Shown here piece after piece: positions 4,078 to 34,928 of a stretch of 64,000 bases of DNA. The translations under genes were made by a program, and so were the position numbers. Each line of letters begins with the position of its first letter. The first letter of the stretch is position 1. The DNA comes from a virus. Where the stretch lies: positions 1-64,000 of IMG/VR virus record IMGVR_UViG_3300047090_000102; one strand, written 5' to 3'. The notes beneath the pieces are model-generated. The model did no database searches. It was not told the origin of the DNA and worked only from the letters and a program-made list of their open reading frames with translations.

Positions 4078-4104
4078 AAGTTTACTCCCTTTCTTTTTGG
4101 TTAC

Positions 4105-4491: not shown

Positions 4492-4492
4492 A

Positions 4493-14258: not shown

Positions 14259-14773
14259 CAGTTCACCGTGGGCTTGTTGTTCTCATGCATGAACCGATGG
14301 AGCTCTTCGGCGTTGACCGGATCACGGCCAAAGAATGCGATGAACTTGAGTTCGTCGGGAGATTTCCCGCGTAACTCTTTGGTGATGTCGTTGACTTCGA
14401 TCTTGTTGGTGATGTGGCCGGCAATCTTCGCCGCTAGTTCATAGGCTGCCACCTGGCCGTTCATGCGGTCCCCGGTCTGGGAGATCGGGATGCGCGCCAG
14501 GGCCAGAAGTTCGTCGACAAAGTCAGACTTGGCAAGATCTTTGCCTTGCTTCATGCCGGCCGCGGCCGCGAAGCGCTCAAGCTTGCGCTCGATGAGTTTG
14601 CGAACGATCGGCTTTTTGAGCGCGCGATAGGCGAATACTGTTTGGTTCTTTTTCGCTCTGGCTGGGGTGTCGCCGGTAACGCCTATCTCTACTGCGGTTG
14701 CGGGTCCGTCGCCCATGTACTTCGCGACGAACGCCAACTCCAGCGGTGTGGGGTATTTTTTAGGTACTGCCAT
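14258..14773 (-). CDS. terminase small subunit (candidate)
   Basis: 171 aa, directly coupled (TGATG) to terL. The N-terminal helical segment ELAFVAKYMGDG...A is typical of small terminases. Confidence 0.5.
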   Translation of the reverse strand: MAVPKKYPTPLELAFVAKYMGDGPATAVEIGVTGDTPARAKKNQTVFAYRALKKPIVRKLIERKLERFAAAAGMKQGKDLAKSDFVDELLALARIPISQTGDRMNGQVAAYELAAKIAGHITNKIEVNDITKELRGKSPDELKFIAFFGRDPVNAEELHRFMHENNKPTVN

Positions 14774-14842: not shown

Positions 14843-14874
14843 CCAAAAACGAAAGGAGCCTGATTAAGGCTCCC
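14843..14874 (-). terminator. rho-independent terminator
   Basis: Minus strand reads GGGAGCC-UUAAUCA-GGCUCC followed by UUUCGUUUUUGG. It lies 23 nt after the stop of 14897..15139. Confidence 0.55.
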
Positions 14875-14896
14875 TTCTTTCTTCTCTGTATGTCTG

Positions 14897-18233: not shown

Positions 18234-21200
18234 CTACTGAAATACGCCGTCCCGCAAAGCCTCGGAGCGTTTTACCGGGTCTTTTAACGTCTGTATCTCC
18301 TTCTGAATGTAGATCGGCATGATGACTACCCGCTCCGCCGGCGTGCTTTCCGCCATGACTTTCTTGATCTGGCCCAGAGTGAACCTCGGCAGCATCCGCT
18401 TGAATTCATTGGTCCGCATCTTGAAAAGGATCTTCTTAACATCAGCCTGGGTCAAGTGTCCGCTCGCGATTCTGGCCTTGTTGTCCGTGTACTCCTGCTG
18501 CTCTTCTGGCGTCCGTGGTGGCATCGCCTGTCCTGCGAACCGGTGCATCAGAATCTCTGCCGGGCTCATGCTCTCTGACTTCGGGAACTTGGTGCCCAGT
18601 AGAAGCCGCAGCGCTTCTCTCTTGCCCGCGCCTGGCTCGGTGTCACGCTCGTATTGCTCGTACTGCATCAGTGGGCCGATAGAACTCTTGCCCATGTGCT
18701 CGCCGATCTGTTTCGCTTTCGTCACAGCACTTCCCTCCGGGTTGTAAACAAAGTCGTTCTTGTAGTCACGGTTCTCGATCACATCATGCGCCGCGCGGAT
18801 CAACGTCGACGGCGTGAATTGGGACTGTGCCAGAGAGGAGAACGAACGCTCACCCTTGGCAGTCTCGATCATCTCCGCCGGCAGCTTTGAAAGTCCGAAT
18901 CTGGGCGACTTGGCATTCGGTTCGTTTGTAACTTTCTTCATGAATTGGTCGTAGGCTCCGTATCCCACAGCCACTAGAAGTCCTAACATCGCCAGCATGC
19001 TGAGTGCGTGCCCGCGAGCCTGATCGTCCACTCCGGACTTGAATGCTCCCTCGAAGATGTTCTTGTACGCCTTGAAGCGCCCGAGGTGGTATCCGTTGAA
19101 CCAGGTCAGCCACCGGGTCCGCATGATGTCGCCTAGGAGTTTGGAATCGAGCGGCCGCGTCGGAACTTGGTAGTCGGGGAAAATCTTGTTCGTCTCCCGG
19201 ACCGCTGCCTCCATGCTCATGCCGTCGGCGATCTTTTCATGCACTGACTGCATATACAGAATATCGTTCGAAACGAAAGCTGCGGCGTGACTTGCCCGGC
19301 GGATCGCCTGTACCGGGTCATCGCCCTGACGCAATCCCATGTAGTCCCGCATCTTCTCTTTGAACGGCTTGTTATTTTCCATCATCCCGGTCATCAGTTC
19401 GACGAAGTGCTTATTCAGGTCGGACACGTATTGCTTGTGACTCATCAGGTGGGCGCCCGCGTCCAACGCTCGGATGTAGTCGGCGTCTTTTGTCACTGCG
19501 GACTTTATGGCTTTAGCCATTGTCGACGTTACATTGCCTAAGCCAAGAACGTTGGCGTTTGCCACTGCACCACGGCTGACTACGGCGAAGTCTGCCATGT
19601 TGAGAACATGGAGTAACGGATTCAGCAGGATCGACGTTTGCGCCACGTCCGCGAGTTTGCCCAGAATGCTTGGCGCGTTTTCTTTGTTCAGTTTGTCGGC
19701 GAATCTCTGAAGCACCTCGGCGGTCCTGGGCTCGAACTGGTAGCCTCTGAACTGCGGCAGGTTCGCGATCTCTTTCCATCCGCGAGGGGCATATAGTCCT
19801 TTCTCTGGCAGCATGGCGACACTCGCGAAGGCCGGCGAGGACTTCCACGCATCAAGGAACCGCTTGGCTTCTACGGCCCGGGTGAGTTGCAGGAAATCCG
19901 CCATCGTCGTGGCTACTGGATCCCGGAAATAGGTCAAACCGGTATTTTCCTCAATTTCGTCCTTGGTCGCTTGGGTGATTGACCACTCGCCACGATTATC
20001 GTCAATAAATCGTTTTCCGACAGTAAAGCCCGATGGAGCCTCGCCCGACATAGGAGTAGGCTGGCCGCCGTCCCATCCGGTCACCTGGCCGTCTTTGAAT
20101 GACACTACCCGTCTGGTGCCCTCGCCGTCGTCCAGGGAGTACATGACGCGCTGTTTTAGAGACGCGGCAGTCTTACTGAGTACATTTCCCCGTCCGCTGC
20201 CTCTGGAGCCCTCTGTGGCACGCTGGAGCTGGTTCTGGCGATCGCGGACCACCCGGTGGAGGTACGTGGGGTCAAAGTCTGCCGGGATGTTGGCCTCGCG
20301 CAATTCCTCGTAAAGCGCCTGATTGGCCTCGCGCAGAGGAGTCACGTACTGATCAAGGATTCTCTGCTGCTCTGGGCTGAGCGACGTTGGGCCTGCCTGG
20401 GGAACCAGCAAGGAATCGATATGGCGGTCCACGGCCAGCCGGTCAGCGACCGTGGTGTCTTTGCCGACCTCCTGGAGAGTCTTCGCTGCGGTAATCGCCG
20501 ACCCTTCAAACTTGCGGTCCAGGTCTAAAAGGTTCGTTTCAAGGTTACGGGACTTGGCGAGGTTCTCTTTCCGCTCTGCCCGCGCTTGCCACTTTGATGG
20601 CAGTACGTGGGACTGGATCAAGTCGCGGACAGGTGCTGCCGCTTTGGCTATGGCTTCTACCAGTGGTCTGACGAGAGCGCCGGCTCCGCGTTCAATGACT
20701 GGTGTCGCGTGAGACAGGACTGCTGGTACGTTGAGATTGGCGAATCCACGCTCTCCTTTGCGCTCATCCTCTTTGAGTGAGTACGCTGGCGGTTCTACTG
20801 TAGGCTTTTGGCCTTCTCCGCCCGCATTTTCCTGATCTCGTCCGCGATTGCCCGGCGGCGCGATACCGGTCGGGCCTGCTGCGCTACCTTCGCCAGCCGC
20901 TGTAAGCCCTCGCGTACCTTCTCCGGGTCGGACTGAAAGGGCTGCTCTGTTGGTTTGGAGTCTGACGATTGAGAGTTCATGGAGCTCCTTTGCTCGGTCA
21001 AACATGCCATTCATAATCTCGGCGATCTTTGCGGGACCGTGATGGCGTTCGAGTTCGTTGTAATATTCGGTGAACCAGTCGGCGGCGTCTTCTGGTGATA
21101 GAGTGTTTTCGTCTGCTGCGATCTTGGCTGCCATCTCCGCGACTTTCATGTAATCCGGGTAGGCTTGATAGTAGGAATGCTTCAGTGCTGTGCCGAGTAG

Positions 21201-24200
21201 CTTCTTGGCGACCGGGTGATTCAGTAATCGCGGATAGGCGTCTTCCGGCAGATGCTCGGCAATCTTTCCGGCTCCCAACTCACGTTGTACTCCACCGTGG
21301 AATACCTCTTCTTGGAAGATATGTTCATCCCTCGCGCCAGTGAAGAAGTTCACGCCTTTGGTCTTTGCCTGGGGAGACTTTGCCGCTTGGTCGAAAGCAC
21401 TGGCCAGTGACTCCATGTCCTGCCGTACTTTTGCGTCTGTGGCCATTGGAGCAAAGTTACGCAGGTTCTGTGCAGTTCTTGCGGCCTGTGTGACGCTTAG
21501 ATTGGCTCCAACGATTCCATGCGGCGCACCGATGGCGGAACGTGCCATATCAAACGCGGCAGAGGACAACTCGACGGTCGGCGGAATCGAGCCTACCGAG
21601 GGCCGATACACGGCTTTGATCTCGGTAACTTCAGGAGCGTTCTCTCCAGTACTCTCCCATCCGCTTGGCGATTGCAGCGAGTAGGCTGGCTCTTCCTCCT
21701 CACCTCCCTTCGTCTCTACTTCCGCCGGGTATGTCTTCAGCACCTTGTCGAGGATATTGGCGGCATTGAATCTCTCTGTCCCGCTCATTGGCAGATAGTA
21801 GATCGGCTGTAACCCCTTCTCGTAGACAACACCCATGCTCTTGAGTTGCTCGCCCATTCCATGCCCTGACGGTATGAACTGCACAACCCTGTCACGGCCA
21901 ACACGCCCGCGCACGATTCGAGTCCCGCCCTCCAGCCGATATGGTGTGTTGTTTTCGAGAACATCCTTGATGATCTGGGAGGAGTTGACCGCGCTCTTGT
22001 TGCCGGTGATCTTCGCCAGGAGTTGGGCAATCTGCTCTTTCGGAATCGCCACTCCGACCACGCGCTGGCCGGACTTTGAGTCAACGACGGTGTAGACTTC
22101 AAGCCTCTGGGTCGAATCGTGGATGGCATTCCACCAGTGCATAACCGCGCCGCCGATCAGATGGTTGGGAGTCGTGTTGTGGGCCGGTGCCGCCTCGTAT
22201 TGTTTGCCCCACTCCTCTTTACCCCATGCAATCGGGTCCTTGGTAGCCGCTTCGCTATCGGCCAAGCTCTTCTGCGCACGCTCGAGAGCTTCCTCTTTTT
22301 CCTTGATCGACTCCTCTGTGTAGTATTGCGGATAACGCTCGCGGGATTCCTTGGTGGACTTCAGACTCCACTCTGCCGACTGAACAGAACTCTTCGCCTT
22401 GTCTATGGTCTTCTTGGACCACTCTGATATCTCTTCGAATCCAGGTATGTACGCTGGTTTCTGGTCAGCGCCGTGACCCCATTTACCAATCTCAAGTTTG
22501 TGATTTGCAACCTTTTCCCACTTGCCGTAGTCCGGATACACGACATAAGAGGCTGGCTCCCTGTGGCCGTCTGCTCGTATGATGTCTTTCGCGTCCACTA
22601 CGAACGCCAGTTTCCCATCACCGTTTCGCAGGATGCGCGGATTGAGTTTAGAATCCTGCTTCATCTTCTTTTCAAGTTGCGCGACCGAGAGCCGTTCAGT
22701 ACGAACATCGGCGTCCACTGGATAATAGAATGTCTCGGCCCCGGTCTTAGGATCACGTGCGATCACACGCTGCTCTTTAACAGTGAAAGTGTCTCCGGGC
22801 ATCTGCTTGACGCCGGTATCGAGCGTTCCGTTCTCAATCGCGTCCTTTACCGCTGCTTCAAATATGTCATAGAAATAGTTGTAGGCTCCGTTCTGAACAT
22901 CAGGGTCAAGAGCCAGGAGACGATTGAGCAAGCGGGTCACGTTGACCATGTCGGCGTCGGGCACGGTCGGCGCACCGCCTTGCCCAGTCTTCAACACCTT
23001 TAGGTCTTCCAGTATCTGCATCCCGGTAAGGTTCTTGCCTTTCGATTCTTTAGTCGCGGTCTCCGGCACCTCTGTGTTCTTCAGGAGACTTTGATAAAAC
23101 GCCCTGGTCGCGGCCTTACCCTGGTCGGTCTCGAAGTTGACTTTGTCCATCATCTCCGTGCCTTCGTTCGTCTTGGTCTGGCCTTTGGACAAAGCTTCGA
23201 GGGACCCCAGACGTCGGGCAATGGTCGAGATGAACCGGCTCTCGCCTCCCATATTGGTCTTGAGTAAGGCATATTCTGGAGGTTGAACCTGATTGCTTCG
23301 ATGTGTGCGACCCAGCATCTGCATCGCGCGGTCAGCGCTCCAGCCGACTTGCAAAGTGATATGCAGCCGTTTCTGCTGGTTCTTCATGTCCTTACCAGCA
23401 TGGAGCGAGATCCCGGTACCGCCGGCAGTTGACAGAATTGCTACGCGCTTCTTGCCAGCGTTGAAGTTTCCTTCCTCCACTTTGTTGATCTTGTCGCGCG
23501 CTACACCCGGGTCACCACGAGAGACGAACTTGCTCGTCGTCGGATCGAAGCGTTCTTTGCGTCCGGTGATCTCTGCGACCTTACTGTGACCACCCAGAGA
23601 TTCAACGAGGATATCTAGTGGGTTCGCTGGCATCTGTAGGTTTTGCTTCAGTTCTTTGATGAGTGCATCGCGCTCGGCTACGGCCTGCGGGTTGACCACG
23701 GGAATATCACGCCCGCTTTCGTCCTTCTGTGTCGCCAGAACCTTGATCGGTTTGCCTTCCGAGTCCACATCATCAATCCATTGCTGGGTTGGATAGTGCT
23801 CTTGCACCAAGTCCATCAGCATTTCAGCCGGCCCAAAGTCGTAGTCCGGTATCTCGTCCGTATCCTCGAGTCCCTTAAACTTCAGTTTCTCTCGGTTCTG
23901 TGCGGCCTCGTTCGTGTTGACAAGGCTGATAACGACACTCTTGCCATCGCCCAGCGCCTTGTTAGCTTGCTCGACCGCCGTAGGTATCTTGAGAGTTGTG
24001 AGCAGGACGTTGAAGAACCGTTGCTGGCTCGCGTAGAAGAGAGACATGAAGCGGGATTTCGCGCGACTGCCGCCATTCACCGTGTTCTGGATCGTATCTT
24101 CTACACGCTGTGATACCAGTTTCCACGCCTTGACCGCGCTGCGGTACAAGTCCTTCTGCTCGTCGTTAACCGTGTGCTCGATCTCGGAATACTGCACACC

Positions 24201-27200: not shown

Positions 27201-30200
27201 GATGATTCTGGTAGCAAAGCTTGTGCCGTACTTGGCGTACTCCTTGCCAGCAATACGGATGTTGGCGCGAACATTGTACTTTTCGGCTATCTTGTCGAAC
27301 CACCTGCCGGCGCCACCCGGGGCCGTGAGTGCCGCTCCGCCGTTGGCATCGTCTGCGCGTCCACCGCCCAGAATGGTGACAAGACGCCCGCCAGGAGCCA
27401 GACGCTGCAATGCGGAATCTACGTGATTGAATCCATAGACGTTGCGGTTTTTGACCGCCTGCCCTTCTGCGCCTTTTAATGCGCCAGCGGAAAACGGCGG
27501 GTTCATGATGATCACTGTCGGCTGGACAGAACTCTTGAGCAGGGAGTTGATGATCTCGCCGTCGTGGGAAGTGATGTTATCGAACCCAACGTGCTTGAGC
27601 ATCGCCTGTCTGCGCGTCGAGATCTCGTTAACGTGAACCTCGGCGCCAACCGCTTTGGCGAATATTGCCAGACCACCGTTACCGCCGGATGGCTCCAGAA
27701 CCACGTCATCGGGTTTTATGCCAGCGACTTTGGCCACGGTGTAGGCCTCGGTTGGCGGAGTCGAGAACTGCTGGCCCTTCAGTTGCTCATCTGTGCGCGT
27801 GCTCTGCGTTGGCAGACGGTTCATGAGGTTCTCGCGCAACATCGCCAGACCTTCGATCGCTGGCATGCCCATCAGGTTTTCGCCGGCGTCGAGCAGGTAT
27901 TTGTTGACACCTGCCTCCATGGCGTCGGTCGCGTCTTTGGGTGTCCACTCGCCCGAAACCCGCGAGGATCCAAAGTGCTCGGCAGCCAAGCGCTCGAACT
28001 GCGGCATATTTCCGAGGGATTCTCCAGTTATGAGCTTCTTATAGACTGCGTCTGCCAGTTTAGCGGCAGGGGTTGCCTCTGGCTCTTTATCGACCGGAGT
28101 GACTTCGCTCTTGAGTGCCCAGCCCTCTATCCGCTCATGAGTTTTGGGGTCTTGTAGGCGAACCCTGTTTCCCTGCTCGAAACCTACTTCGTACTGCTTT
28201 CCGCGATATTCTACCAGATCACCAATTCTGTAAGTTAGCGGGCCGGGAGGTTGAGGCTCATATCCTGGCAATGGCTGCGCGGCGTATCCCTTCCGGCGAA
28301 TCTGTTCATCCCTGATTTTTTGCAGTTGTTTATTCAACGCTGGAGTTGCGCCGCCGTATGTTCCGCCTGTAGTCTTGTTTGCCTCTAGTGCCTTTTCGAG
28401 TTGGGTTACGCGCTCGGCCAGTGTCTGATCTGAAGCCTCACGTATTTCTGCTGGCTCTGATACACGAGTTTGAGGGCGCGCTTCGTAGCTTCCTTCTTCT
28501 GTTGGAACAACGTCGGCTTTCTTGATTGTAAATTTCGGCTCTGCCTTAGTCGCCTGCTTGAGTTCGTGTACTTCCGGCGCCGTCAGTGGCTTTGCTTCCG
28601 CCTCACGGTTTGGCGCTTCATCGGATGGGTGGACTTCCCACTGATCAACACCAGACCACCGGGACCACAAGTCCTGACCCCATGCTTTGGCCGCTTCTTC
28701 TGTGGGGAAGCGTAGAGCGTTGTAGGCCCAGTTGGCATCGCCTTTGCCTTTGACGCCGACCTTGAAGCTCTGCTGTGGGCCCGGTGGCGTGGCGGTCTCA
28801 GCGGCCTTGTTGAGCCAATATCCTGGTCCGGTGTTGGCGGCAATATTCTCGCCGAAATCTTGGAAGGTAAGGGGTTCGTGGTCTGGCTTATCGAGATATT
28901 CCGAGTAAGCCTTTTTCATCTCATCGAGAGTCGGTATTCTTCCACCCTGGTTTTTGCCGCGCTTTTCGAATGTTGGCTGGAGTACGTGCTTCAGTTGCTC
29001 CTGGTACCACTTATCGTCATATCCACTTCCGATACCACTAAGCCATTGGCTTCCTTCCGAACTAGTCTCTTTCTTATTGGCCTGCGACCTATCATCCATC
29101 CATTTGTTGGTAGCGTCGGTCTCGATCTGGAAACTGTTTATTTTACGTTGAGCATCCGCGATCGCCTTTTCGCGACTTTCGTTCATCCTTGAAATTGAAT
29201 AGCCGTCCTGGTCGTTTACCTGCCAGAGCTTTCCACTCTTGCCGGCTGAATACTCAGTGACAGTCCAGCCTTTCGGTAAATCGGGCGCTTCATCCGCGCG
29301 GAACTTAGCGATCTCCTGCTTGTCTGGCATGGTCGCGTGGTTACGCACACGCTCGCCTTTGATCCGGTTGCCGTCCTTGTCGACGGCTGCTACGTCTACA
29401 TTCCATCCGTTCTTTGGCCAATTGGCTCCAGGTTCAGGTGGATGGAACGCAATGACTTCGTCCCTCTGGCCGCCGTATCCATTGACGATACGGCCGGGCT
29501 TGAAGAACCGCGGCAGCTCTTCATCACTCAAATAGTTTGGACTGGTCTTCGCTGGCGGCGTCTTTTTGGCTGGGGCGGCCGCGGGAGTGGCAGGTGCGCC
29601 TTCCAGGATTGCCAGCCTCTCTGCCTTGCCTTCTGCGGACAGGTACGGCGTGTTGCGCACGACCTGCGTCATTTTGACACGCTGCTCTGGCGTCATCTTG
29701 TCGAAGTTGACGCGCCACTGGTCAGTTATGAGATCAGACTTTACCTCGGTCGGGGCTCGCTCGCCTTTGGTGTCGATGACGAACGTGCGGCCATCGCGGC
29801 GAATTACTTTGTCTCTCGATGGATCGAAGTCTGATATCTGTTGGGCATCCAGCTTCGGTCCACCGCGGCTTTGAGGCGGAAGCTTCAGCAGTTTGGCGTC
29901 CCTCTTGGCCTCTATCTCCGCGAGCCTCTTCTTGAGATCTTCGTACTCGCGGCTGCCTGGGCCGGGCTGACTAGGCTTTGTAGTTGCCGCCGCTTGAGGT
30001 TCAGGTGCTTTCTCTTCCTCCTGTGCCTTCCACTCTTTCACGTCTTCCCGGTGTCCGATCTTCTGCATAAACATGGAATCGCCGAGATACCCGGGCGTGG
30101 CGCTCAGATCGTTTTCATCGACACCATATAACTCGAGTCCGTCCTGGCCGCCACCTACGATCTGGTTGACAACAAACCGTTGCCGCTTATCCCCGTATCC

Positions 30201-33200
30201 AGTATTGATCGTTTCGAGCACATCGCCGACGCCGACATCCATCGCTTTGAGTTTTCCGTTCTTGTCCCACTCTGCTTGGAGTTCAGCTTTACGCTCACTG
30301 GCCTCTTTCTCCGCGTCGTCTGCACGCTGCTTTTCCGCTGCCTTCTTGGCCTCCTCGCGCCGCTTGATCTCCGGATCGTTCTTCACGGTCCAGTTCTGAT
30401 CGGCCGGGTAGGTCTTGCCAACGGATGAGGTGCTTCCAATCAGAGACGCGGAGCCGGTAACGCGCACACGCAGCTCGCCCTTGCGGTTCGTCTCGACTTT
30501 TCCGTTGATGTACGCGATCGATCCGCCGAAGCCTGGGACTGCCTGGTAGACCTCGTCGCCATCCTTGGATTTCATGCGGCCATCGGCCCATGTGTCAGTA
30601 GCAGCCGCGCCAAGAAATTGCTTTATCTTGGCATCAAACTTTTGTTTGCCATTCTGCTGTAGCAGCTTAATGGTGCCATCTAGGGTCCGCTGCTCGGTGC
30701 TGTGTTGATGGATTTCAGTGAAGAGACGCGCACCGGTGGTTATCTCATAGGAAGACCATCCCTGTTTGTCGTGTTTTGCGATACTTCCGCGCGGCGGCAC
30801 GACGGCGATACGGTATTCCTCGAATCCAGGCAAGAGGTATTCGGTTCCCTTGAGGTGGAGTTTTTCGCCACCATGGAGAGGATTAGTGAACTCCACTCCA
30901 CGCTTGAGAACCAATGGCTGTGCAACCTGCGGTGGGTTATCGCGCTTGAATGTTGGAACCTCCGGAGACTTGGCAGAAGGGGCCGGTTTAGCGATTGCGC
31001 CTGTAGCCCTATCAACAATTTCCCCGATTTCCTGCCTGATTTGGTGCAGTAATACCGCTTCATGTCCGGGGATTTTCTTTCGTCCAGCAATCAAATCACG
31101 TTCGGCGGCGCGCAGAGCTTCGAGTTTTACGCCCTCTTCCGAGTCTGCTGGTATGCGGGCCGGGCTACGCTTCTCCTGCGCTTTTTGGGCGGCGCGAACA
31201 GGCTCGGCTGCTCCAACTCCCTGGCCAGTTGAACCTGATCCCTGACCTTGGCCGGGAGTCTCTGGAGTACGAGTTTGAGCTTGTCCTGCATCTGTGGATA
31301 AACCTGTTGAAATTGTACCACCAAGCGGTATCGTCTCCTGGCTCCCGTCCTTCTTTGATACGACGATATGGTCTACTGGGACATTTTGGCCTTCAAGTTG
31401 CCTTCCGCCTTTGTATTGTGCGGCGACCTCTGGCTTTACGTATCCAATCGTCAAATGCGGGCGATAGGAGTCGAACGTGTCTTTGTGGAAGCTACCTGCG
31501 CCTTCTACAGCCTTACGCAGCGCCAGCAACTCAGGAGTGCTCTCCAGTGGCGCAATAACCGGTACAGCGCCGTCAGAGTGCTCGCTGGCAGGGAATGTAT
31601 CGGTCGGCCCAATAGGGACCTCGAACGGGGCGATCTTTGACGCCGCTTCTTTGATCTTCTCGACCGCTGCCGGACTGTCATCCTTCAGGCCATACCGCAG
31701 GGTCAAATGGGGGTGATCCTCCCGGCCCTTTGGATTCCCGCCGAAGTCAGTCGGCATCAGGTGCTCGTCTGGGATGGACGCCGCGGCTGCCGCGTGAGCC
31801 TGACCGAGTGCGCTCTCTGGCGCGATATTGATCTGAGTCGAGCCTTTCTTGAACTCCTGCTCTTCTGTCCCGGTACGCTCGCGGAACTGCTGGACCGCTG
31901 CTTCGTGGAATCGTGCTGCCTCATCCCAGTACTTCTTGCGCTCTGCTGACCCTTCAGGAAACTCCCGGCCCGAGGTGTACAGCCGGTGTGTTTGGTCTGT
32001 GATTGCCTGTATCTCAGGGATTACGATCTGGATTTCAGCACTCAAGCCTGATGGCATCTGAGCCTGAACATTAGCACTTGCGTATCCTGCCTTGTTTTCA
32101 CGCGGTTGCAGGAAGTTGTCTTCGACTCCAAGGACGTTGTACCGCTGCTTCAGCGCGGCGATGATCTGGTCTTTGGCTTCGACCGTGTCCGCTACGATCT
32201 GGCTGGCCAAGTAGTCGCCAATGGTGTTCGGCGGCTTGTCGTCTTCTGTCTTCTCGCCCAGGCGTTCCAAGTTCTTTTGCGGTCTGAGTCGGCCGCCGTG
32301 GGCTTCGTCAAAGTGGGCTCCTTGGACGCTCGCCGCGATCTCAGAGAGCCCGGCTGCCAGTTCTGGCGCCGCTTCTGCCGCGAGCCGTTCGTTCTCAATC
32401 TCGCTACCTGACGGCTGGACTATCTGACGGCCGGCTTCGTGGTCGTAGTCTCCAACCTTGGCTACGGCTACTTCTGAAGGCTCCTTGGCTGGCTGCGCGA
32501 GTTTCGCGGCATCGGCTGGAGATTCGTCTTTTACTTCTACCCGGGGAACCTGGCCCGGTGCAAGTTGGGCCTCCTGGTGTACCTTCTGTACCGCCGGTGA
32601 ATCGGTGGTCATTGCTCGTCCCATAGCAGGGACATCGCCAGCGTTCGGTAACTGTGGTGCTCCAGTCTGACCTTTGGTGCGTTCTGCCTTTATCCGGGTA
32701 GCTTCGGCTGAGATAGCGGGCGAGTAGTCGGCGTTCGCCGGTAGTCCCAGGTTCTTCTTGGCCTGCATCCAGTCGTCGGTTTCGTTCTGCGCCACGGTGG
32801 CGGATGTTGCTGCGGTCTCTGGTTTGGCGGGTGGTTCGCCTATCCATGTAGGCGGACGTGAGGGATTGGCCGCGTCTCTCTTGATGAGTCCATCCTGTTC
32901 CATTCTATCAATGAGGTGTGTGGCCTCTGCGTAACCAATATTGAGGCGGCGCTGCAAGAGAGATGTTGATGCCTTGCCGAATTCAGCCGAAGCCTGCTTT
33001 GCCTGTTCGTATTTGTCGCTCACTGCCGGTGATTCCGGCGTAGGTGTCGATGGTTTCGGCTTGCCGCGGTCAATCACCCGCTGTACAGCCGCTGCAGGCT
33101 TTGTTGCAGGCGTTGCAGGTTTATCTGCCGCTTTGGCCGCTGCCTCCTGCGCCTTGTTGTGCCCCTGGACGGCGTCATTTATCAACGTCTGCGCGAGCTT

Positions 33201-34928
33201 CTCTGCCTGCTCTGGCGTTTTCGCTATGTGCAGGGTTCCATCCGGACCAACAAACCTCCCGCCAGACTGCTGGATCGCATTGATTAGGTAGTCGTGCGCG
33301 TGAAGGATCAGTTGCGGGCGCTGTGCGGGCGAGGCTGCGGCGATCTTGGTCGCCAAATCGTTCAGATGATCAGGGTGAAGCTCGGCGGGATGAGCCTGCG
33401 GCGTGGATCCAGTTGCTGGAGGTTGCGCGGCGGCGGTTGCTGCCTCTGTCTGCTGCTTACCAAAGGTATCCACCTGCCGGTTGATCATGTCCAGTGCCAA
33501 CTTCGCGGCTGTCTTAAGGTCGGTCGCGGTCTCTACGTGCCCGGTAGTTGGATCGGTGAATGTTCCCATCGGGCGGGCCAGTATCCACTTTGTCAGGTTC
33601 CAGTATCCTTCTTTCATTAGCGCTTCACGCGCCATTGGATCCGGAGCCTTGGCGATTGCTCTCGCGACAGTGTCAAGTACTTCTGGAGTAAGCGACGGCG
33701 GGCCTGGCGGCGGTGGAGGAGGAGCCTTTGGCACTTCTCCAGTTCCTTGAAGATAATGCATCATCGATTGCGTTGCTTCATCGATGACCGGCGCACTACG
33801 TGGCGGAACACTTACCTCAAATGGACCTACCTTGCCTCGAAATGTCGTTCCTTCTGCCGTTTGCGCTACTCCGGCAGCAACCTTGCCACCAAACACTGAA
33901 CCACCAGAAAATTTCCCCCTTGGCGTTTCTACAGATCCAGTCTTGAGGCCAGTTATGACTCCAAGAGCGGATGGCAGGAAGAATGCCGCTGACCGTATAA
34001 GCTCTTCGTCTTCTGGCGAAACATGACCATGAACTGCCGAACCAGTCCCTTCGCTAGCCAACATTCCTGCTCCATACCCAGCAGCAACCTTGAGCGGCGA
34101 AGTAAGCGCACCAGCAACCGCCAGCGGTTCCATGAGTTCACCAGATCCCTGTAGAATCTCAGCGGCACCCAATGAACGCTGCCTGCGCCTTTTCTCCTCA
34201 TCTTCAACAGCAGATCCCTTTGCAAAATTAGTGAGCATCTTAGCCTCGTCTTCGGGCGTAAGGTGCATATCTCCGGTAGGAAGGCTATGGGGATGCTCCG
34301 GCCTGCTCGTTGATTCTTCTGGCACATCTCGATAATGTGCTGGCCCTATAGTATTAGGGTCATCAGGAACCATCGTTTGTTTATGCACAAACAGCGGAGC
34401 ATGTGTCTGCGCTTGGTTCTCGCTGATGCGGCTTATGCCAGTCGCCAGCGGCTCAGCTCCAACCCATGCATCAAGGACAGGAATACGATCAGCCTCCGGA
34501 ACAAGAGGTTCCTGATAAGGTGTTCCGGTTTTTGCATGATACAAAATTGGTTGATCGAGTTGAGGGTCATGTGGCTTCCCTGTTGGTTCTGCTACGGGCT
34601 GCCCAGACGCTGCACGAGCTGCACCTGTTGGCGTCTGCGTGCGATACGCGCCGGGATAAGCTGTGGGGCCACGCGGTACATCCACGTGAGAAGGCATCGA
34701 CTCAAATAGGCTGGGTTGTTTCGGACGATAGCCGACGGACCCTGGCCCAAGAGGATTGCCGAGACGGTCAAACTCTTGGTCAGCCTGAGTTTTAGTGAGT
34801 GATGGAGTGGAAGGCGCGGAGCCCTCTAATTCAAAGCCGGGAGGGAGCGTTAGAGCGGGAGAGGGAGAGGAATCTTGGCCCTCAAGTTCAAAGCCTGGAG
34901 GGAGAGCAACTGCGTTTTTGTCTGCCAT
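18234..34928 (-). CDS. giant polyvalent internal-virion-slot protein (5,564 aa) with FtsK-gamma-like, RelA/SpoT-like, 2H phosphoesterase, N6-adenine methyltransferase and intein-interrupted Sbno/SNF2-like helicase modules
   Basis: Uninterrupted 16,695-nt ORF with an ATG start. Catalytic motifs were read directly (see the domain features). It occupies the T7 gp16-equivalent position between internal-virion-like genes and the terminase. Confidence 0.85.
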   Translation of the reverse strand: MADKNAVALPPGFELEGQDSSPSPALTLPPGFELEGSAPSTPSLTKTQADQEFDRLGNPLGPGSVGYRPKQPSLFESMPSHVDVPRGPTAYPGAYRTQTPTGAARAASGQPVAEPTGKPHDPQLDQPILYHAKTGTPYQEPLVPEADRIPVLDAWVGAEPLATGISRISENQAQTHAPLFVHKQTMVPDDPNTIGPAHYRDVPEESTSRPEHPHSLPTGDMHLTPEDEAKMLTNFAKGSAVEDEEKRRRQRSLGAAEILQGSGELMEPLAVAGALTSPLKVAAGYGAGMLASEGTGSAVHGHVSPEDEELIRSAAFFLPSALGVITGLKTGSVETPRGKFSGGSVFGGKVAAGVAQTAEGTTFRGKVGPFEVSVPPRSAPVIDEATQSMMHYLQGTGEVPKAPPPPPPGPPSLTPEVLDTVARAIAKAPDPMAREALMKEGYWNLTKWILARPMGTFTDPTTGHVETATDLKTAAKLALDMINRQVDTFGKQQTEAATAAAQPPATGSTPQAHPAELHPDHLNDLATKIAAASPAQRPQLILHAHDYLINAIQQSGGRFVGPDGTLHIAKTPEQAEKLAQTLINDAVQGHNKAQEAAAKAADKPATPATKPAAAVQRVIDRGKPKPSTPTPESPAVSDKYEQAKQASAEFGKASTSLLQRRLNIGYAEATHLIDRMEQDGLIKRDAANPSRPPTWIGEPPAKPETAATSATVAQNETDDWMQAKKNLGLPANADYSPAISAEATRIKAERTKGQTGAPQLPNAGDVPAMGRAMTTDSPAVQKVHQEAQLAPGQVPRVEVKDESPADAAKLAQPAKEPSEVAVAKVGDYDHEAGRQIVQPSGSEIENERLAAEAAPELAAGLSEIAASVQGAHFDEAHGGRLRPQKNLERLGEKTEDDKPPNTIGDYLASQIVADTVEAKDQIIAALKQRYNVLGVEDNFLQPRENKAGYASANVQAQMPSGLSAEIQIVIPEIQAITDQTHRLYTSGREFPEGSAERKKYWDEAARFHEAAVQQFRERTGTEEQEFKKGSTQINIAPESALGQAHAAAAASIPDEHLMPTDFGGNPKGREDHPHLTLRYGLKDDSPAAVEKIKEAASKIAPFEVPIGPTDTFPASEHSDGAVPVIAPLESTPELLALRKAVEGAGSFHKDTFDSYRPHLTIGYVKPEVAAQYKGGRQLEGQNVPVDHIVVSKKDGSQETIPLGGTISTGLSTDAGQAQTRTPETPGQGQGSGSTGQGVGAAEPVRAAQKAQEKRSPARIPADSEEGVKLEALRAAERDLIAGRKKIPGHEAVLLHQIRQEIGEIVDRATGAIAKPAPSAKSPEVPTFKRDNPPQVAQPLVLKRGVEFTNPLHGGEKLHLKGTEYLLPGFEEYRIAVVPPRGSIAKHDKQGWSSYEITTGARLFTEIHQHSTEQRTLDGTIKLLQQNGKQKFDAKIKQFLGAAATDTWADGRMKSKDGDEVYQAVPGFGGSIAYINGKVETNRKGELRVRVTGSASLIGSTSSVGKTYPADQNWTVKNDPEIKRREEAKKAAEKQRADDAEKEASERKAELQAEWDKNGKLKAMDVGVGDVLETINTGYGDKRQRFVVNQIVGGGQDGLELYGVDENDLSATPGYLGDSMFMQKIGHREDVKEWKAQEEEKAPEPQAAATTKPSQPGPGSREYEDLKKRLAEIEAKRDAKLLKLPPQSRGGPKLDAQQISDFDPSRDKVIRRDGRTFVIDTKGERAPTEVKSDLITDQWRVNFDKMTPEQRVKMTQVVRNTPYLSAEGKAERLAILEGAPATPAAAPAKKTPPAKTSPNYLSDEELPRFFKPGRIVNGYGGQRDEVIAFHPPEPGANWPKNGWNVDVAAVDKDGNRIKGERVRNHATMPDKQEIAKFRADEAPDLPKGWTVTEYSAGKSGKLWQVNDQDGYSISRMNESREKAIADAQRKINSFQIETDATNKWMDDRSQANKKETSSEGSQWLSGIGSGYDDKWYQEQLKHVLQPTFEKRGKNQGGRIPTLDEMKKAYSEYLDKPDHEPLTFQDFGENIAANTGPGYWLNKAAETATPPGPQQSFKVGVKGKGDANWAYNALRFPTEEAAKAWGQDLWSRWSGVDQWEVHPSDEAPNREAEAKPLTAPEVHELKQATKAEPKFTIKKADVVPTEEGSYEARPQTRVSEPAEIREASDQTLAERVTQLEKALEANKTTGGTYGGATPALNKQLQKIRDEQIRRKGYAAQPLPGYEPQPPGPLTYRIGDLVEYRGKQYEVGFEQGNRVRLQDPKTHERIEGWALKSEVTPVDKEPEATPAAKLADAVYKKLITGESLGNMPQFERLAAEHFGSSRVSGEWTPKDATDAMEAGVNKYLLDAGENLMGMPAIEGLAMLRENLMNRLPTQSTRTDEQLKGQQFSTPPTEAYTVAKVAGIKPDDVVLEPSGGNGGLAIFAKAVGAEVHVNEISTRRQAMLKHVGFDNITSHDGEIINSLLKSSVQPTVIIMNPPFSAGALKGAEGQAVKNRNVYGFNHVDSALQRLAPGGRLVTILGGGRADDANGGAALTAPGGAGRWFDKIAEKYNVRANIRIAGKEYAKYGTSFATRIIVIDKDGSTPSRMGSLGRKRITDEIQELQGKPSWRLAYLKREANRGDLKNWDSTVQGNVSTLEQAYTLLENVAETRPVPTRTARTAGTGQEIAATGVGESKAPGTAGSGQPLRGERGTGAEIQPTGGPERVPGQPGGVAAGVGNQPVPLQQSQVQPATGPRTPVQTAGGAGGSTPAVNAERPSTVSAAEKLREQIRKAAGERLGKKIEGQPQPGSPEYEALKQKLAQLEAKKPRAIQPATPKPKPAERFTADNREEALKRLRARRGEVQPEGEEPPAYSLEEGGEKELTPEDINDMVDVGGFHFQQGIIQFDPWSKKMIADLGEWARPYLEVVHQEVSSLLGKPIEGKPKAPPATEAEKQGLQLEREAREQQAETEDTSAFVSYRPTLKGSTHPGPIVESKSMATVSLPEITYQPRLPQSVVTEGRISAVQMEPIALAGQQNQIILPSGHRAAAASSDGTGVGKGREAAGVLFDNWRQGRRRLVWVSEKWDLMQDAIRDLDGIGATTLSKTIKPFMKQPATTPIDHEGIMFSTYALLRSEDKKGNKRIAQLEKWIRGNDEGEGAHVIFDECVPAGTKIETPSGPVPIEQLHIGDSVWGFNHDTGEIEATPVLYLFRRETVNDFTIVHETPMTGNHPVWTANRGYVPSDELACDDTVALLDFVPDALQPHLCFVPAAICSEAEYYSQYQGDDKTSFLYEEVLGTVADEQSGIESQKAYNSRRKAEVVCNSSRSPQAPGRSRENAAASLRPNESITQSSSQGRSARSFTQERIRSSQWRERNAAVLAAANAGREAGVANGVRGNDQHTSRDWTADSLQTGYFATVTEVSDRGGRRGTPSDKGETGRSAQRGVPPICRLDCNEIQEPGDTGFPGNRRVCRTVHNIETATRNYFAGGLLVHNCQALKNAVARSQQEVSLTGDTVKKFLERNPKLRTFFLSATPATDVTNLGYMDRLGIWGAGTPFPGGFEEFNAKISAGGMSAMEMIARELKSQGKYVSRTLSYKGVQYSEIEHTVNDEQKDLYRSAVKAWKLVSQRVEDTIQNTVNGGSRAKSRFMSLFYASQQRFFNVLLTTLKIPTAVEQANKALGDGKSVVISLVNTNEAAQNREKLKFKGLEDTDEIPDYDFGPAEMLMDLVQEHYPTQQWIDDVDSEGKPIKVLATQKDESGRDIPVVNPQAVAERDALIKELKQNLQMPANPLDILVESLGGHSKVAEITGRKERFDPTTSKFVSRGDPGVARDKINKVEEGNFNAGKKRVAILSTAGGTGISLHAGKDMKNQQKRLHITLQVGWSADRAMQMLGRTHRSNQVQPPEYALLKTNMGGESRFISTIARRLGSLEALSKGQTKTNEGTEMMDKVNFETDQGKAATRAFYQSLLKNTEVPETATKESKGKNLTGMQILEDLKVLKTGQGGAPTVPDADMVNVTRLLNRLLALDPDVQNGAYNYFYDIFEAAVKDAIENGTLDTGVKQMPGDTFTVKEQRVIARDPKTGAETFYYPVDADVRTERLSVAQLEKKMKQDSKLNPRILRNGDGKLAFVVDAKDIIRADGHREPASYVVYPDYGKWEKVANHKLEIGKWGHGADQKPAYIPGFEEISEWSKKTIDKAKSSVQSAEWSLKSTKESRERYPQYYTEESIKEKEEALERAQKSLADSEAATKDPIAWGKEEWGKQYEAAPAHNTTPNHLIGGAVMHWWNAIHDSTQRLEVYTVVDSKSGQRVVGVAIPKEQIAQLLAKITGNKSAVNSSQIIKDVLENNTPYRLEGGTRIVRGRVGRDRVVQFIPSGHGMGEQLKSMGVVYEKGLQPIYYLPMSGTERFNAANILDKVLKTYPAEVETKGGEEEEPAYSLQSPSGWESTGENAPEVTEIKAVYRPSVGSIPPTVELSSAAFDMARSAIGAPHGIVGANLSVTQAARTAQNLRNFAPMATDAKVRQDMESLASAFDQAAKSPQAKTKGVNFFTGARDEHIFQEEVFHGGVQRELGAGKIAEHLPEDAYPRLLNHPVAKKLLGTALKHSYYQAYPDYMKVAEMAAKIAADENTLSPEDAADWFTEYYNELERHHGPAKIAEIMNGMFDRAKELHELSIVRLQTNRAALSVRPGEGTRGLTAAGEGSAAGPTGIAPPGNRGRDQENAGGEGQKPTVEPPAYSLKEDERKGERGFANLNVPAVLSHATPVIERGAGALVRPLVEAIAKAAAPVRDLIQSHVLPSKWQARAERKENLAKSRNLETNLLDLDRKFEGSAITAAKTLQEVGKDTTVADRLAVDRHIDSLLVPQAGPTSLSPEQQRILDQYVTPLREANQALYEELREANIPADFDPTYLHRVVRDRQNQLQRATEGSRGSGRGNVLSKTAASLKQRVMYSLDDGEGTRRVVSFKDGQVTGWDGGQPTPMSGEAPSGFTVGKRFIDDNRGEWSITQATKDEIEENTGLTYFRDPVATTMADFLQLTRAVEAKRFLDAWKSSPAFASVAMLPEKGLYAPRGWKEIANLPQFRGYQFEPRTAEVLQRFADKLNKENAPSILGKLADVAQTSILLNPLLHVLNMADFAVVSRGAVANANVLGLGNVTSTMAKAIKSAVTKDADYIRALDAGAHLMSHKQYVSDLNKHFVELMTGMMENNKPFKEKMRDYMGLRQGDDPVQAIRRASHAAAFVSNDILYMQSVHEKIADGMSMEAAVRETNKIFPDYQVPTRPLDSKLLGDIMRTRWLTWFNGYHLGRFKAYKNIFEGAFKSGVDDQARGHALSMLAMLGLLVAVGYGAYDQFMKKVTNEPNAKSPRFGLSKLPAEMIETAKGERSFSSLAQSQFTPSTLIRAAHDVIENRDYKNDFVYNPEGSAVTKAKQIGEHMGKSSIGPLMQYEQYERDTEPGAGKREALRLLLGTKFPKSESMSPAEILMHRFAGQAMPPRTPEEQQEYTDNKARIASGHLTQADVKKILFKMRTNEFKRMLPRFTLGQIKKVMAESTPAERVVIMPIYIQKEIQTLKDPVKRSEALRDGVFQ
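24510..25493 (-). mobile_element. intein (328 aa) inserted in helicase motif II
   Basis: Begins CVPAGTKIETPSG (Cys1 codon 25491..25493). TGNHPVW block B. Ends ...VHNIETATRNYFAGGLLVHN, followed by the +1 Cys (24507..24509). Confidence 0.85.
24518..25222 (-). CDS. DUF559/Vsr-like (PD-(D/E)XK) homing-endonuclease-like ORF, nested in the +1 frame inside the intein
   Basis: 234-codon ORF with TTG at 25222 and the first ATG at 25213. N-terminal zinc-finger-like CALCQQPF...RFCTKKC. Core LRQRMLAEKLGWPTEF...YKLDIS..SLKLAIEVDGEGHQ...ADRRKEVFLQSVGWTVMRFKNQEI. Its stop lies 5 nt before the intein's terminal Asn codon. Confidence 0.6.
   Translation of the reverse strand: MYLMPFNLICALCQQPFVAKRSTTHSIRGTIKRRFCTKKCSAQWRMNNQELKAKRRITPEGKQKWSAILQEVRKRPDVQEKMQQHLYGPTNPLRSPAVRAVALEASRKKGFAHLNGGNGTPLSLRQRMLAEKLGWPTEFVVTTNTHRGTGLPTHYKLDISQPSLKLAIEVDGEGHQAIKVKLADRRKEVFLQSVGWTVMRFKNQEILDSLETVESAVQCTISRLQPETTSLAVS
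26648..27031 (-). CDS. candidate overprinted +1-frame ORF (127 aa) inside a linker of the giant ORF
   Basis: ATG start. The helical, non-repetitive product (...LVWENLKLLAQQAVDNHYEESEALAQKFNLQVDLNEFLANLEES...) uses CTG/GAG/AAC/CAG/TTC codons. The giant frame here is a G/P/T/A linker with atypical GGA/CCT/CAA/CGA codons. Confidence 0.35.
   Translation of the reverse strand: MLVHSNRRILSLRMLQKQGQSRLEPPAQQALGKKSPQLVWENLKLLAQQAVDNHYEESEALAQKFNLQVDLNEFLANLEESQPESAINQFHYSNPKFNLQQDLVHQCKPLEVLEALLRQSTLNDRLQ
27249..27941 (-). other. N6-adenine DNA methyltransferase domain (within the giant ORF)
   Basis: QQFSTPP, SAM motif VLEPSGGNGG (27672..27701) and the catalytic NPPF (27492..27503). Confidence 0.8.
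31329..31811 (-). other. 2H phosphoesterase (LigT/Acb1-type fold) domain (within the giant ORF)
   Basis: Two HxT motifs 84 residues apart. HPHLTLRYG has HLTL at 31698..31709. RPHLTIGYV has HLTI at 31446..31457. Confidence 0.7.
31899..32351 (-). other. RelA/SpoT (RSH)-like nucleotidyltransferase motif region (within the giant ORF)
   Basis: RLRPQKNLERLGEK...IGDYLASQIV...NKAGYASANVQAQMPSGLSAEIQIVIPEIQAITDQTHRLY resembles the R.K...eK / D..g.Ri / GY.s.H / EiQirT / H..YK layout. Eye-level match only. Confidence 0.4.
32829..33011 (-). other. FtsK-gamma-like winged-helix domain (within the giant ORF)
   Basis: KASTSLLQRRLNIGYAEATHLIDRMEQDGLIKRD matches the S.S.LQRrl.IGYnRA..li..mE..GiV pattern of FtsK gamma. 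Confidence 0.6.

Follow-up and report, generated by a model that had tools for sequence, protein, structure and literature searches.

The window considered here, i.e. the whole stretch of 64,000 nt that was analysed (positions 1 to 64,000 of the viral record IMGVR_UViG_3300047090_000102), carries on its minus strand a single open reading frame (ORF) of 16,695 nt (18234-34928), the product of which comprises 5,564 amino acids (aa) with a calculated mass of 606.5 kDa (~607 kDa). Between two conserved end modules this giant protein combines an FtsK-gamma winged helix-turn-helix (wHTH), a divergent RelA/SpoT-homolog (RSH) fold, a 2H phosphoesterase, an N6-adenine DNA methyltransferase (MTase) and a Strawberry-notch (Sbno) helicase interrupted by an intein, and it represents an uncultured new branch of the known class of giant polyvalent proteins. 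The frame opens with ATG, contains zero internal stops and follows a small ORF that ends 14 nt before it. A sequence-only reading of the same DNA had proposed a stop-free multi-enzyme ORF of this length, which translation bore out, and the positions it gave for the motifs HLTL, HLTI, NPPF, GVGKG and QMLGRTHRSNQ were exact when recomputed from the translation. Over its full length the ORF has, in the main frame, the codon-position composition of coding sequence, except in Pro/Ala/Gly linkers and in ~700 nt in the middle of the intein. In the order of translation, the features of the ORF are the following (P and L numbers are our handles for related proteins and loci):

18234-34928, minus strand: whole ORF, polyvalent protein (translation, mass, codon-position composition)
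33069-34757, minus strand: N-terminal conserved region, aa ~58-620 (BLAST to P0003, P0004, P0006-P0008, P0016, P0020, P0023 and others)
32865-33017, minus strand: FtsK-gamma wHTH, aa 638-688 (Pfam PF09397, phrog_13700)
31863-32471, minus strand: divergent RSH nucleotidyltransferase fold, aa ~820-1022 (fold search)
31347-31748, minus strand: 2H phosphoesterase, aa 1061-1194, with HLTL and HLTI motifs (Pfam PF13563, PF02834)
28089-31241, minus strand: middle region without Pfam or PDB match, aa ~1230-2280 (short stretches in common with P0005, P0025, P0030 and P0059)
27177-27974, minus strand: N6-adenine DNA MTase, aa 2319-2584, motif I VLEPSGGNGG, motif IV NPPF (phrog_6263, plasmid homolog)
26364-26384, minus strand: junction motif EEPPAYSL, copy 1, aa 2849-2855
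25494-26105, minus strand: Sbno helicase, N-extein part, aa 2942-3145, Walker A GVGKG, ending in ...FDE (AAA_34, alignment with a Methylomonas plasmid protein)
24480-25493, minus strand: intein, aa 3146-3483, Cys1, block B TGNHP, terminal HN, +1 Cys (Hint_2, homolog alignment)
24518-25222, minus strand: nested ORF in the +1 frame, 234 aa, DUF559/Vsr-like PD-(D/E)xK endonuclease (Pfam DUF559)
22725-24479, minus strand: Sbno helicase, C-extein part, aa 3484-4068 (Helicase_C_4 at aa 3769-4041)
20790-22724, minus strand: post-helicase region, aa 4069-4713, no Pfam or PDB match
21675-21695, minus strand: junction motif EEEPAYSL, copy 2, aa 4412-4418
20775-20795, minus strand: junction motif VEPPAYSL, copy 3, aa 4712-4718, directly before the C-terminal module
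18234-20789, minus strand: conserved C-terminal module, aa 4714-5564, the anchor that defines the family (HMMER clusters, IMG/VR loci, structure prediction)

Domain organization of the giant protein

The domains named by the sequence-only reading were supported by profile hidden Markov model searches and structure prediction. The FtsK-gamma wHTH gave a Pfam match with E = 7.9e-15 and 54.8 bits, above the cutoff of 30.6, and the 2H phosphoesterase was recognised by 2_5_RNA_ligase2 (PF13563; aa 1069-1194, E = 1.2e-14, 55 bits against a cutoff of 27) together with both HxT motifs, HLTL at aa 1074 (nt 31698-31709) and HLTI at aa 1158 (nt 31446-31457). Acb1, the phage nuclease directed against the cyclic oligonucleotide-based antiphage signalling system, is a member of the same 2H superfamily. 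In the RSH region, Pfam RelA_SpoT stayed below its gathering cutoff (18.7 bits against 27; 23.5 bits for the relative P0004) and a shallow profile of the region found no solved RSH among PDB sequences; ~455-aa homologs of the module, at 47-51% identity, carry a precomputed PF04607 call. An AlphaFold2 (AF2) model of aa 800-1215 reached a predicted local distance difference test (pLDDT) value of 70-92 in the RSH half, and values below 50 in the 2H half, which the alignment did not cover and for which the model was unusable. When the RSH model was compared with the PDB by Foldseek, 50 of the top 50 matches were RSH synthetases (SpoT, the type VI secretion system effector Tas1, RelP/RelQ and CapRel), with a best E of 3e-6 and a TM-score of about 0.55 against small alarmone synthetases. 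At the level of the predicted model, an RSH synthetase fold in the giant protein is thereby confirmed.

One stand-alone homolog of the RSH module, a 455-aa protein (L063; GCA_009772515.1, contig WNFD01010823.1), is encoded in a bacterial conflict island that also contains Imm48, AbiEii and another RelA_SpoT gene, and this company suggests that the module was derived from a toxin-type RSH.

The MTase region lies below the Pfam cutoffs (MTS/N6_Mtase) and was identified through the PHROG phrog_6263 'DNA methyltransferase' (2.8e-12) and through 42% identity over 272 aa to plasmid MTase-Sbno proteins; its NPPF motif is found at aa 2476 (nt 27492-27503). The Sbno helicase is recognised with AAA_34 at 289 bits, in two stretches, and with Helicase_C_4 at 262 bits (aa 3769-4041), and is 35% identical over 619 aa to a plasmid Sbno protein, with GVGKG at aa 3036 (nt 25809-25823) and QMLGRTHRSNQ at aa 3870 (nt 23289-23321). 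Plasmid MTase-Sbno proteins are the closest sequence relatives of the core as a whole (aa 2319-4068, 35-42% identity). An example is the 3,236-aa protein of a Methylomonas sp. LL1 plasmid, encoded beside TraI/T4CP/TraD and itself a polyvalent protein of a transfer module; it differs from the giant protein in being delivered by conjugation, in lacking the intein and in having other end modules, the homology being limited to the core. The Sbno core (window 21729-28091, minus strand) matched 659 plasmid records, 320 of them conjugative, whereas no match to the Sbno helicase was obtained in 50,697 deposited phage genomes (tblastn, E<=1e-10). Since plasmids and deposited phages differ in this way, the MTase-Sbno core looks like an acquisition from plasmid to phage, as judged from sequence.

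About half of the giant protein (aa 1-630, 1230-2280, 2600-2940 and 4070-4710) was without match in Pfam, PHROGs, NCBIfam and PDB sequences. Searches of the PDB sequences with ~2,460 aa of its domain-free regions gave no match, nor did megablast and tblastn of the whole ORF against the 50,697 phages.

An intein with an out-of-frame endonuclease

The intein, which the sequence-only reading had recognised at DEC/QALKN (slashes mark splice junctions), was borne out by alignment with an intein-free homolog. Its Hint_2 match covers the N-terminal 35 residues only, at 25.4 bits against a cutoff of 28.4; the marks of a class 1 intein (CVPAGT..., TGNHP and ...LLVHN/C) are present and splicing is predicted. 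The junction FDE/C...LLVHN/CQALKN aligns with FDEAHSMGN of the intein-free plasmid homolog, and by this alignment the intein is inserted exactly within the DExH box (DE/AH).

The gap between the splicing blocks is occupied by the nested ORF in the +1 frame, the product of which matches DUF559 at 43.9 bits against a cutoff of 20.6. Its N-terminus (CALC...CTKKC) appears Zn-ribbon-like by eye, the Pfam match to the Ogr_Delta zinc finger being non-significant (E=0.36), and no obvious Shine-Dalgarno sequence precedes its ATG at 25213. Within the nested stretch, a coding-like GC pattern across codon positions is seen in the +1 frame only. When the endonuclease was shuffled synonymously, with protein sequence and codon usage fixed, the host frame stayed open in 14 of 200,000 shuffles (p about 7e-5), and none of the 54 codons starting with AA, AG or GA in the nested ORF comes after a codon ending in T. 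Because codon choice keeps the host frame open to this extent, dual coding in the intein is under selection. Two compensating sequencing frameshifts had also been considered as the source of the nested endonuclease, and were rejected by the same shuffle test.

Rare inteins with out-of-frame or antisense homing endonucleases have been described (Gosselin, Arsenault & Gogarten, bioRxiv 10.1101/2025.01.02.630785; ShiLan element, PMC11855218). As in those inteins, the endonuclease lies here at the usual insertion site of homing endonucleases but in another frame, and the host frame stays open. The forms reported are an antisense LAGLIDADG, an antisense VSR-like and a frame-3 EndoVII-like enzyme (bioRxiv 10.1101/2025.01.02.630785), whereas the present case differs in that the enzyme is DUF559/Vsr-like and is encoded in the +1 frame of the sense strand, within a Sbno helicase that is part of a polyvalent protein. 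The sense-strand, +1-frame Vsr-like endonuclease is a further variant of the out-of-frame intein endonucleases.

A second intein was encountered in the closest relative of the window, L004 (IMGVR_UViG_3300019879_000029). Its large terminase subunit (TerL), 92% identical to that of the window, contains a mini-intein of ~180 aa (CVARGT...LINQN/S, at about 7543-8088 of L004), which is not found in the window TerL, where the equivalent position is ~13812-13819. Inteins seem to be mobile in this phage lineage, judging from these two TerL sequences.

Conserved end modules and variable cargo

The C-terminal part, for which a single hydrophobic helix had been noted in the sequence-only reading, is a mostly alpha-helical module with a small beta-domain and, by hydropathy, one clear transmembrane-like helix at aa 5308-5326. 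The N-terminal conserved region, which recurs in many members of the family and for which no Pfam or PDB match was found, contains a hydrophobic segment (aa 310-328), a poly-Pro linker and two helical repeats of ~90 aa. No Pfam or PHROG model matches the conserved end modules. In word-indexed searches the C-terminal 1,165 aa returned two relatives when used as a single sequence and only P0001 when used as a profile, and an exhaustive HMMER search was needed; with aa 4740-5564 this retrieved 955 representative clusters (E<=1e-30 for 393). The module is almost always found at the extreme C-terminus, in host proteins of about 650 to 4,201 aa, and likewise occupies the C-terminus in 59 IMG/VR contigs, in ORFs of 836 to >=4,156 aa. 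Some members are hardly longer than the module itself (P0002, 835 aa; L038, 839 aa), and the giant protein is the longest version seen in the family. A candidate for the module as a separate gene (L002/P0001) was rejected as proof of this, the frame being open to the contig edge.

The cargo between the ends varies. The FtsK-gamma/RSH/2H block is found whole in P0003, P0004 and P0005 at about 50% identity, and P0059 also has the MTase and the helicase. Among 14 large relatives examined with Pfam, 2H domains are present in 10, and the other cargo comprises His_Phos_1, ResIII/SNF2, Eco57I MTase, RelA_SpoT, Sbno, ART-PolyVal and GHKL ATPase (HATPase_c) domains, a repertoire that is, by these sequence matches, the canonical polyvalent set.

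Among the 50,697 deposited phages, neither the C-terminal module nor the family consensus found a match by tblastn. In species-representative genomes the family members occur mostly in metagenome-assembled genomes of Acidobacteriota (L066-L069, L072). One member lies 1.8 Mb inside a 2.97-Mb contig and, given this position deep in the contig, is probably a prophage. The family is known from metagenomes only, is linked to Acidobacteriota and has no cultured member.

The AF2 model of the C-terminal module gave only noise, mainly transporters, in a Foldseek comparison with the PDB. Against BFVD, it matched the last segments of LPD/polyvalent proteins, the best with E=7.9e-25, and segment 3 of the giant protein of Ralstonia phage Alix (E=1e-7), which is a Bcep22-type, LPD38-bearing C-terminal region, 68% identical to aa 3203-4600 of Bcep22 gp75.

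Genome context

The genes around the giant ORF that bear on its interpretation are as follows:

12645-14258, minus strand: TerL (phrog_979, 1.2e-33; tblastn against phages)
14258-14773, minus strand: candidate small terminase subunit (TerS), by position only; overlaps the TerL start, and a homolog follows the giant ORF in L025 and L066
35764-41876, minus strand: upstream neighbours g47, g45, g44 and g43 (877, 141, 266 and 590 aa; synteny across the clade)

The identity of TerL, 4 kb downstream of the giant ORF, is certain, and in 11 loci the gene follows the giant ORF in conserved order; the candidate TerS gave no family match. The order g47-g45-g44-g43-[giant ORF]-(TerS)-TerL is kept in many viral contigs of 57-80 kb. 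The sequence-only reading had interpreted the gene order as portal, scaffold, capsid, tail tube and internal protein, followed by the giant ORF and TerS-TerL. Of this, the placement of the giant ORF as the last in a conserved series of large genes ahead of TerS-TerL held, with TerL verified; the portal, scaffold, capsid and tail-tube labels were not verified by Pfam, PHROGs, PDB sequences or tblastn and, because these neighbours lack matches, remain guesses. The 'portal' and 'capsid' candidates found no match by tblastn in the 50,697 phages, and for g47 a weak, partial PHROG match to 'head decoration' was the only one obtained.

Relatives of the module are found within structural modules. The P0002 gene, which codes for a stand-alone homolog, is flanked by capsid/tail genes on one side and holin/endolysin genes on the other. 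In L038 and L048 the gene of a 933W-type 'head closure Hc3' protein (phrog_578, 2.9e-43), for which a weak 'internal virion protein' match was also obtained, lies 2-3 genes upstream of the module. A phrog_578 protein was not found among the neighbours in the window.

Comparison with known systems

Adenine MTase-SWI2/SNF2 dyads, 2H, RelA/SpoT and FtsK wHTH domains have all been listed as domains of polyvalent proteins by Iyer, Burroughs, Anand, de Souza & Aravind 2017, who include in the dyad a Strawberry-notch variant from Methylomonas and who note that phage polyvalent proteins adjoin late genes, with a rationale for their delivery together with the DNA (PMC5512222). The assignment of the giant protein to this class, made by the sequence-only reading, is right: every recognised domain is on that list, and as in the class many unrelated effector domains share one phage polypeptide. 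Polyvalent proteins carry 2-15 disparate effector or DNA-binding domains and are encoded by conjugative elements or by phages, in the latter near late or virion genes; the giant protein has FtsK_gamma, RSH, 2H, N6A-MTase, Sbno and an intein, and is encoded 4 kb from TerL in a syntenic block, with relatives in structural modules. Pfam LPD, MuF and ArdC domains, which are frequent in the class and not obligatory, were absent even at E<=1 on the domain-free segments. As far as Pfam shows, the conserved end modules differ from the domains described for the class. The sequence-only reading had regarded the combination of domains as undescribed, which was overstated in view of the list of Iyer et al., of published giant DarB-like virion proteins and of a 5,553-aa example in GenBank.

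That example is gp55 of the cultured gut phage BKO1-TP3 of Bacteroides (PQ571269.1; L077, 2667-19328), a 'DarB-like' protein adjoining the portal gene, which combines InPase, ddrB-ParB and SNF2 domains with a C-terminal region of Bcep22 type; its sequence is essentially unrelated to the giant protein, and at 5,553 aa it shows that the size of the giant ORF is not unique. The Bcep22/933W-type giant proteins, rather than T7 gp16, are the better comparator. They include Bcep22 gp75 (4,602 aa, with SLT, Eco57I MTase, SNF2/ResIII, LPD3 and C-terminal LPD38 domains), the Alix protein (3,164 aa), phi24B gp47 (2,807 aa) and a Vibrio phage D96a protein (3,066 aa), and those of Bcep22, phi24B and BKO1 type have in common a C-terminal region of ~900-1,000 aa found in 337 deposited phages. 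The Bcep22-type protein gp69 of JC1, with 4,515 aa, takes up 22% of its genome as the last gene of the morphogenesis module and mass spectrometry of CsCl-purified virions yielded 51 unique peptides from it (PMC9144972). In phi24B, gp47 is an abundant virion component that cryo-electron microscopy does not show, and it has been proposed as an ejection protein that forms a conduit. Like these proteins, the giant protein is one polypeptide whose gene closes the late/structural block and occupies between about a fifth and a quarter of a genome of ~60 kb; it unites an MTase and SF2-helicase dyad with further effector domains, and ends in an alpha-helical module of ~800-1,000 aa with a hydrophobic helix, located 257 aa from the C-terminus as compared with 343 in Bcep22 gp75 and 332 in BKO1 gp55. 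For the C-terminal module the likeness is, according to the models, one of fold only. The giant protein differs in lacking LPD38, LPD3 and LPD5 as well as the SLT of gp75 and the MuF_C peptidase of phi24B gp47, in a helicase of Sbno type (AAA_34/Helicase_C_4) as opposed to SNF2_rel/ResIII in gp75, in its additional FtsK-gamma, RSH, 2H and intein modules and its different conserved N-terminal module, and in being followed by TerS-TerL where the others are followed by lysis genes, its family having no cultured member. LPD38 was found neither in the giant protein nor in 32 family members, and SLT in one of 32 short members. Homology to LPD38 by sequence was rejected, a correspondence seen by eye (TPAP...NRDFF.G..IY and AAPT...NENFMGAQIY) being non-significant.

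The analogy drawn earlier with DarB of phage P1, a capsid-packaged MTase and helicase fusion that protects incoming DNA from type I restriction (PMC5512222), holds for the fusion of the two enzymes, whereas the helicase belongs to another family; P1 was absent from the tblastn phage matches at E<=1e-10. With about 2,250 aa, P1 DarB is also much smaller, and P1 is a myovirus with dedicated Dar packaging partners. The proposed likeness to T7 gp16 could not be upheld as homology: hhalign gave <1.5% for T7 gp8-gp17 against the end-module and neighbour profiles, and <1% for the end modules against gp13-gp17, and no similarity to T7 gp14 or gp15 was detectable in the genes flanking the giant ORF. 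T7 gp16 is likewise large, encoded late upstream of the terminase genes and ejected into the host envelope, which makes for an analogy of position at most. It differs in its length of 1,318 aa and in the endolysin domain annotated in the T7 record, no lytic transglycosylase having been found here, and T7 gp16 is not known to carry cytoplasmic effector enzymes.

Proposed function and alternative explanations

The domain identities, the layout of conserved ends and variable cargo, the position adjacent to the terminase, the relatives within structural modules and the C-terminal fold likeness are best accounted for if the giant protein is a polyvalent effector that is packaged in the virion and ejected into the host, a reading to which we assign a probability of roughly 0.6. 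The host is probably a member of the Acidobacteriota and the phage probably short-tailed. From these observations we infer packaging and ejection, and likewise every enzymatic activity and target named below. The giant protein would be made late, together with the structural genes, and its N- and C-terminal modules, each with a hydrophobic helix, would take it into the capsid. At infection it would exit via the tail, ahead of or with the DNA, and the end modules might assist in building or traversing an envelope conduit, such that the cargo could act within the first minutes of infection. Splicing of the intein would restore the DExH box of the Sbno translocase, which together with the fused MTase could methylate the incoming genome in cis, a DarB-like protection from restriction, and the FtsK-gamma wHTH might tether the giant protein to the DNA. 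The 2H phosphoesterase could destroy 2'-5' or cyclic (oligo)nucleotide immune signals, or alternatively repair cleaved RNA ends, while the divergent RSH might produce an alarmone-type nucleotide or pyrophosphorylate a target and in this way shut down or reprogram the host.

Several points weigh against this reading. The presence of the giant protein, or of any family member, in virions is argued from precedent, and the module is in no deposited phage. Of the window neighbours other than TerL, none could be assigned to the capsid, portal or tail through matches in Pfam, PHROGs and PDB sequences or through tblastn against deposited phages. The C-terminal module has no detectable sequence or profile homology to LPD38 or to the C-termini of the Bcep22, phi24B and BKO1 proteins (hhalign 0.2-0.5%). 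Its AF2 model is of moderate confidence (pLDDT 67), and its BFVD matches have low TM-scores of 0.2-0.4; for those to the C-terminal third of the Alix protein and to LPD38-annotated proteins the values are 0.2-0.3, at a probability of 1.0. Sequence and profile comparisons of the end modules with T7 gp13-16 were negative, and no cell-wall-degrading (SLT) or peptidase (MuF_C) Pfam domain was found in the giant protein. A polypeptide of 607 kDa would further be a heavy load for a capsid that holds a genome of about 64 kb or more. Finally, in the RSH domain the motifs DxxAxR, GYxSxH and EIQIRT read, by eye, DYLASQ, GYASAN and EIQIVI; the acidic residues are retained (D of DYLA, E of EIQI) and several basic ones are replaced. 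Because several canonical motifs diverge, this domain may be inactive or of other chemistry.

Neighbours other than TerL that match no known capsid, portal or tail protein, with packaging drawn from precedent, would also suit a polyvalent anti-defence or host-takeover protein that is translated in the infected cell, from a late operon or by read-through, and never packaged, for example one protecting replicating or progeny DNA, with end modules for oligomerisation or for placement at the membrane. Anchoring in a membrane would fit the hydrophobic helices, and the MTase-Sbno core is closest to plasmid proteins. However, methylation of incoming DNA needs an enzyme that arrives with the DNA, for which a late cytoplasmic enzyme would come too late; the gene ends a block of large genes beside the terminase and has relatives inside structural modules, and the characterised giant DarB-like proteins (JC1, phi24B) are all virion-associated. 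We consider a purely intracellular role unlikely. A mainly structural role, as an ejection or conduit protein comparable to T7 gp15/gp16 and the P22 E-proteins, with dispensable and partly decayed enzymes as passengers, would explain why the ends are conserved while the middle is freely exchanged and why some members (P0002, L038) barely exceed the module. It is in line with the distance of ~257 aa from the transmembrane-like helix to the C-terminus (343 in Bcep22 gp75, 332 in BKO1 gp55), with the conduit proposed for phi24B gp47 and with the diverged RSH motifs. Against decayed passengers speak, on the other hand, the catalytic motifs, which are intact in the 2H domain, in the MTase (NPPF) and, as Walker A and motif VI (QMLGRTHRSNQ), in the helicase, and an intein that appears from its sequence to be kept splicing-competent, in a frame held open by selection, which argues that the helicase is in use; nor is there homology to T7 gp14-16. 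A mainly structural role with the enzymes as passengers is quite unlikely.

That adjacent genes were joined by indels or by chimeric metagenome assembly might be suspected from the exceptional length of the ORF, its possibly metagenomic source and the low complexity of the main frame in the middle of the intein. A random stop-free frame of 16.7 kb is essentially impossible, though, and the coding signature follows the main frame throughout, linkers and nested endonuclease excepted, where codon choice keeps it open (p about 7e-5). The module junctions, with end modules and cargo in one fused layout, are repeated in independent assemblies (L002, L004 and proteins P0003-P0005 and P0059), relatives of 2,400-4,200 aa have the same end-to-end layout, and proteins of comparable size are known from cultured phages. 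In view of the coding signature and of these independent assemblies, an artefactual fusion is very unlikely, and an assembly or annotation error as the explanation of the whole ORF is hardly credible.

Returning to the packaged, ejected effector, a more far-reaching version can be put forward tentatively, and we regard it as rather doubtful in its entirety. The end modules could constitute an unrecognised but widespread effector-delivery chassis of soil phages, with at least 955 clusters, enriched in Acidobacteriota and distinct from the LPD38 and MuF chassis, on which cargo is swapped in the manner of polymorphic-toxin tips. The 607-kDa load in the present case would then comprise a plasmid-derived Sbno methylation machine and a pair of RSH and 2H domains by which nucleotide-based immunity is manipulated in advance, and each of the three EPPAYSL motifs might be a processing site at which separate enzymes are freed after ejection.

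Implications

What is new here are the end modules, which define a large family without Pfam or PHROG model or deposited-phage member, the plasmid-type Sbno helicase, absent from deposited phages, and the +1-frame intein endonuclease; no current concept is overturned, and a known theme is extended into new sequence space. If the giant protein is packaged, a short-tailed soil phage would ship a 607-kDa toolbox with its DNA, and the family would amount to a natural catalogue of counter-defence enzymes for the first minutes of infection (2H, histidine phosphatase, RSH, ADP-ribosyltransferase, MTase-helicases and GHKL ATPases), in Acidobacteriota, a phylum whose phage biology is almost unknown. 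The end modules would then be candidate packaging and ejection signals that might be used for loading foreign proteins into capsids, the Sbno core may document anti-restriction traffic between plasmids and phages, and the intein provides a clean, statistically supported case of an out-of-frame homing endonuclease that routine annotation misses.

Repeated motifs and minor features

The sequence E-[E/P]-P-A-Y-S-L is found in three copies at module boundaries of the giant protein, with different synonymous codons in each, and might serve in processing or in docking. Because the codons differ between copies, a DNA repeat or recombination scar was rejected as its origin. It is conserved in the closest relative, L004, as EPPAYSI, and L002 has GQPLFSL; in the wider family it is absent, and its standing as a family-wide motif was rejected, with 2 matches against 4.5 expected. 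Two further peptide repeats, also with diverged codons between copies, are LPPGFELEG, twice at the extreme N-terminus (aa 9-36; window 34820-34904, minus strand), and a linker, PGSxEYExLKxxLAxxEAK, at aa 1659-1682 and 2790-2813.

Almost all genes of the window, except TerL, the giant ORF and one AAA_23-type ATPase, are without any match in Pfam, PHROGs, PDB sequences or deposited phages, and the window appears to represent a soil-phage lineage that has diverged deeply. No terminator-like site follows directly after the giant ORF; just upstream of the candidate TerS start, a strong terminator-like hairpin is present at 14851-14877 (minus strand), with an 11-bp stem containing 6 GC pairs and a T-run. 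The ATPase (2785-4077, minus strand) is a 430-aa protein with an AAA_23/SMC_N-type N-terminus and is conserved in L004.

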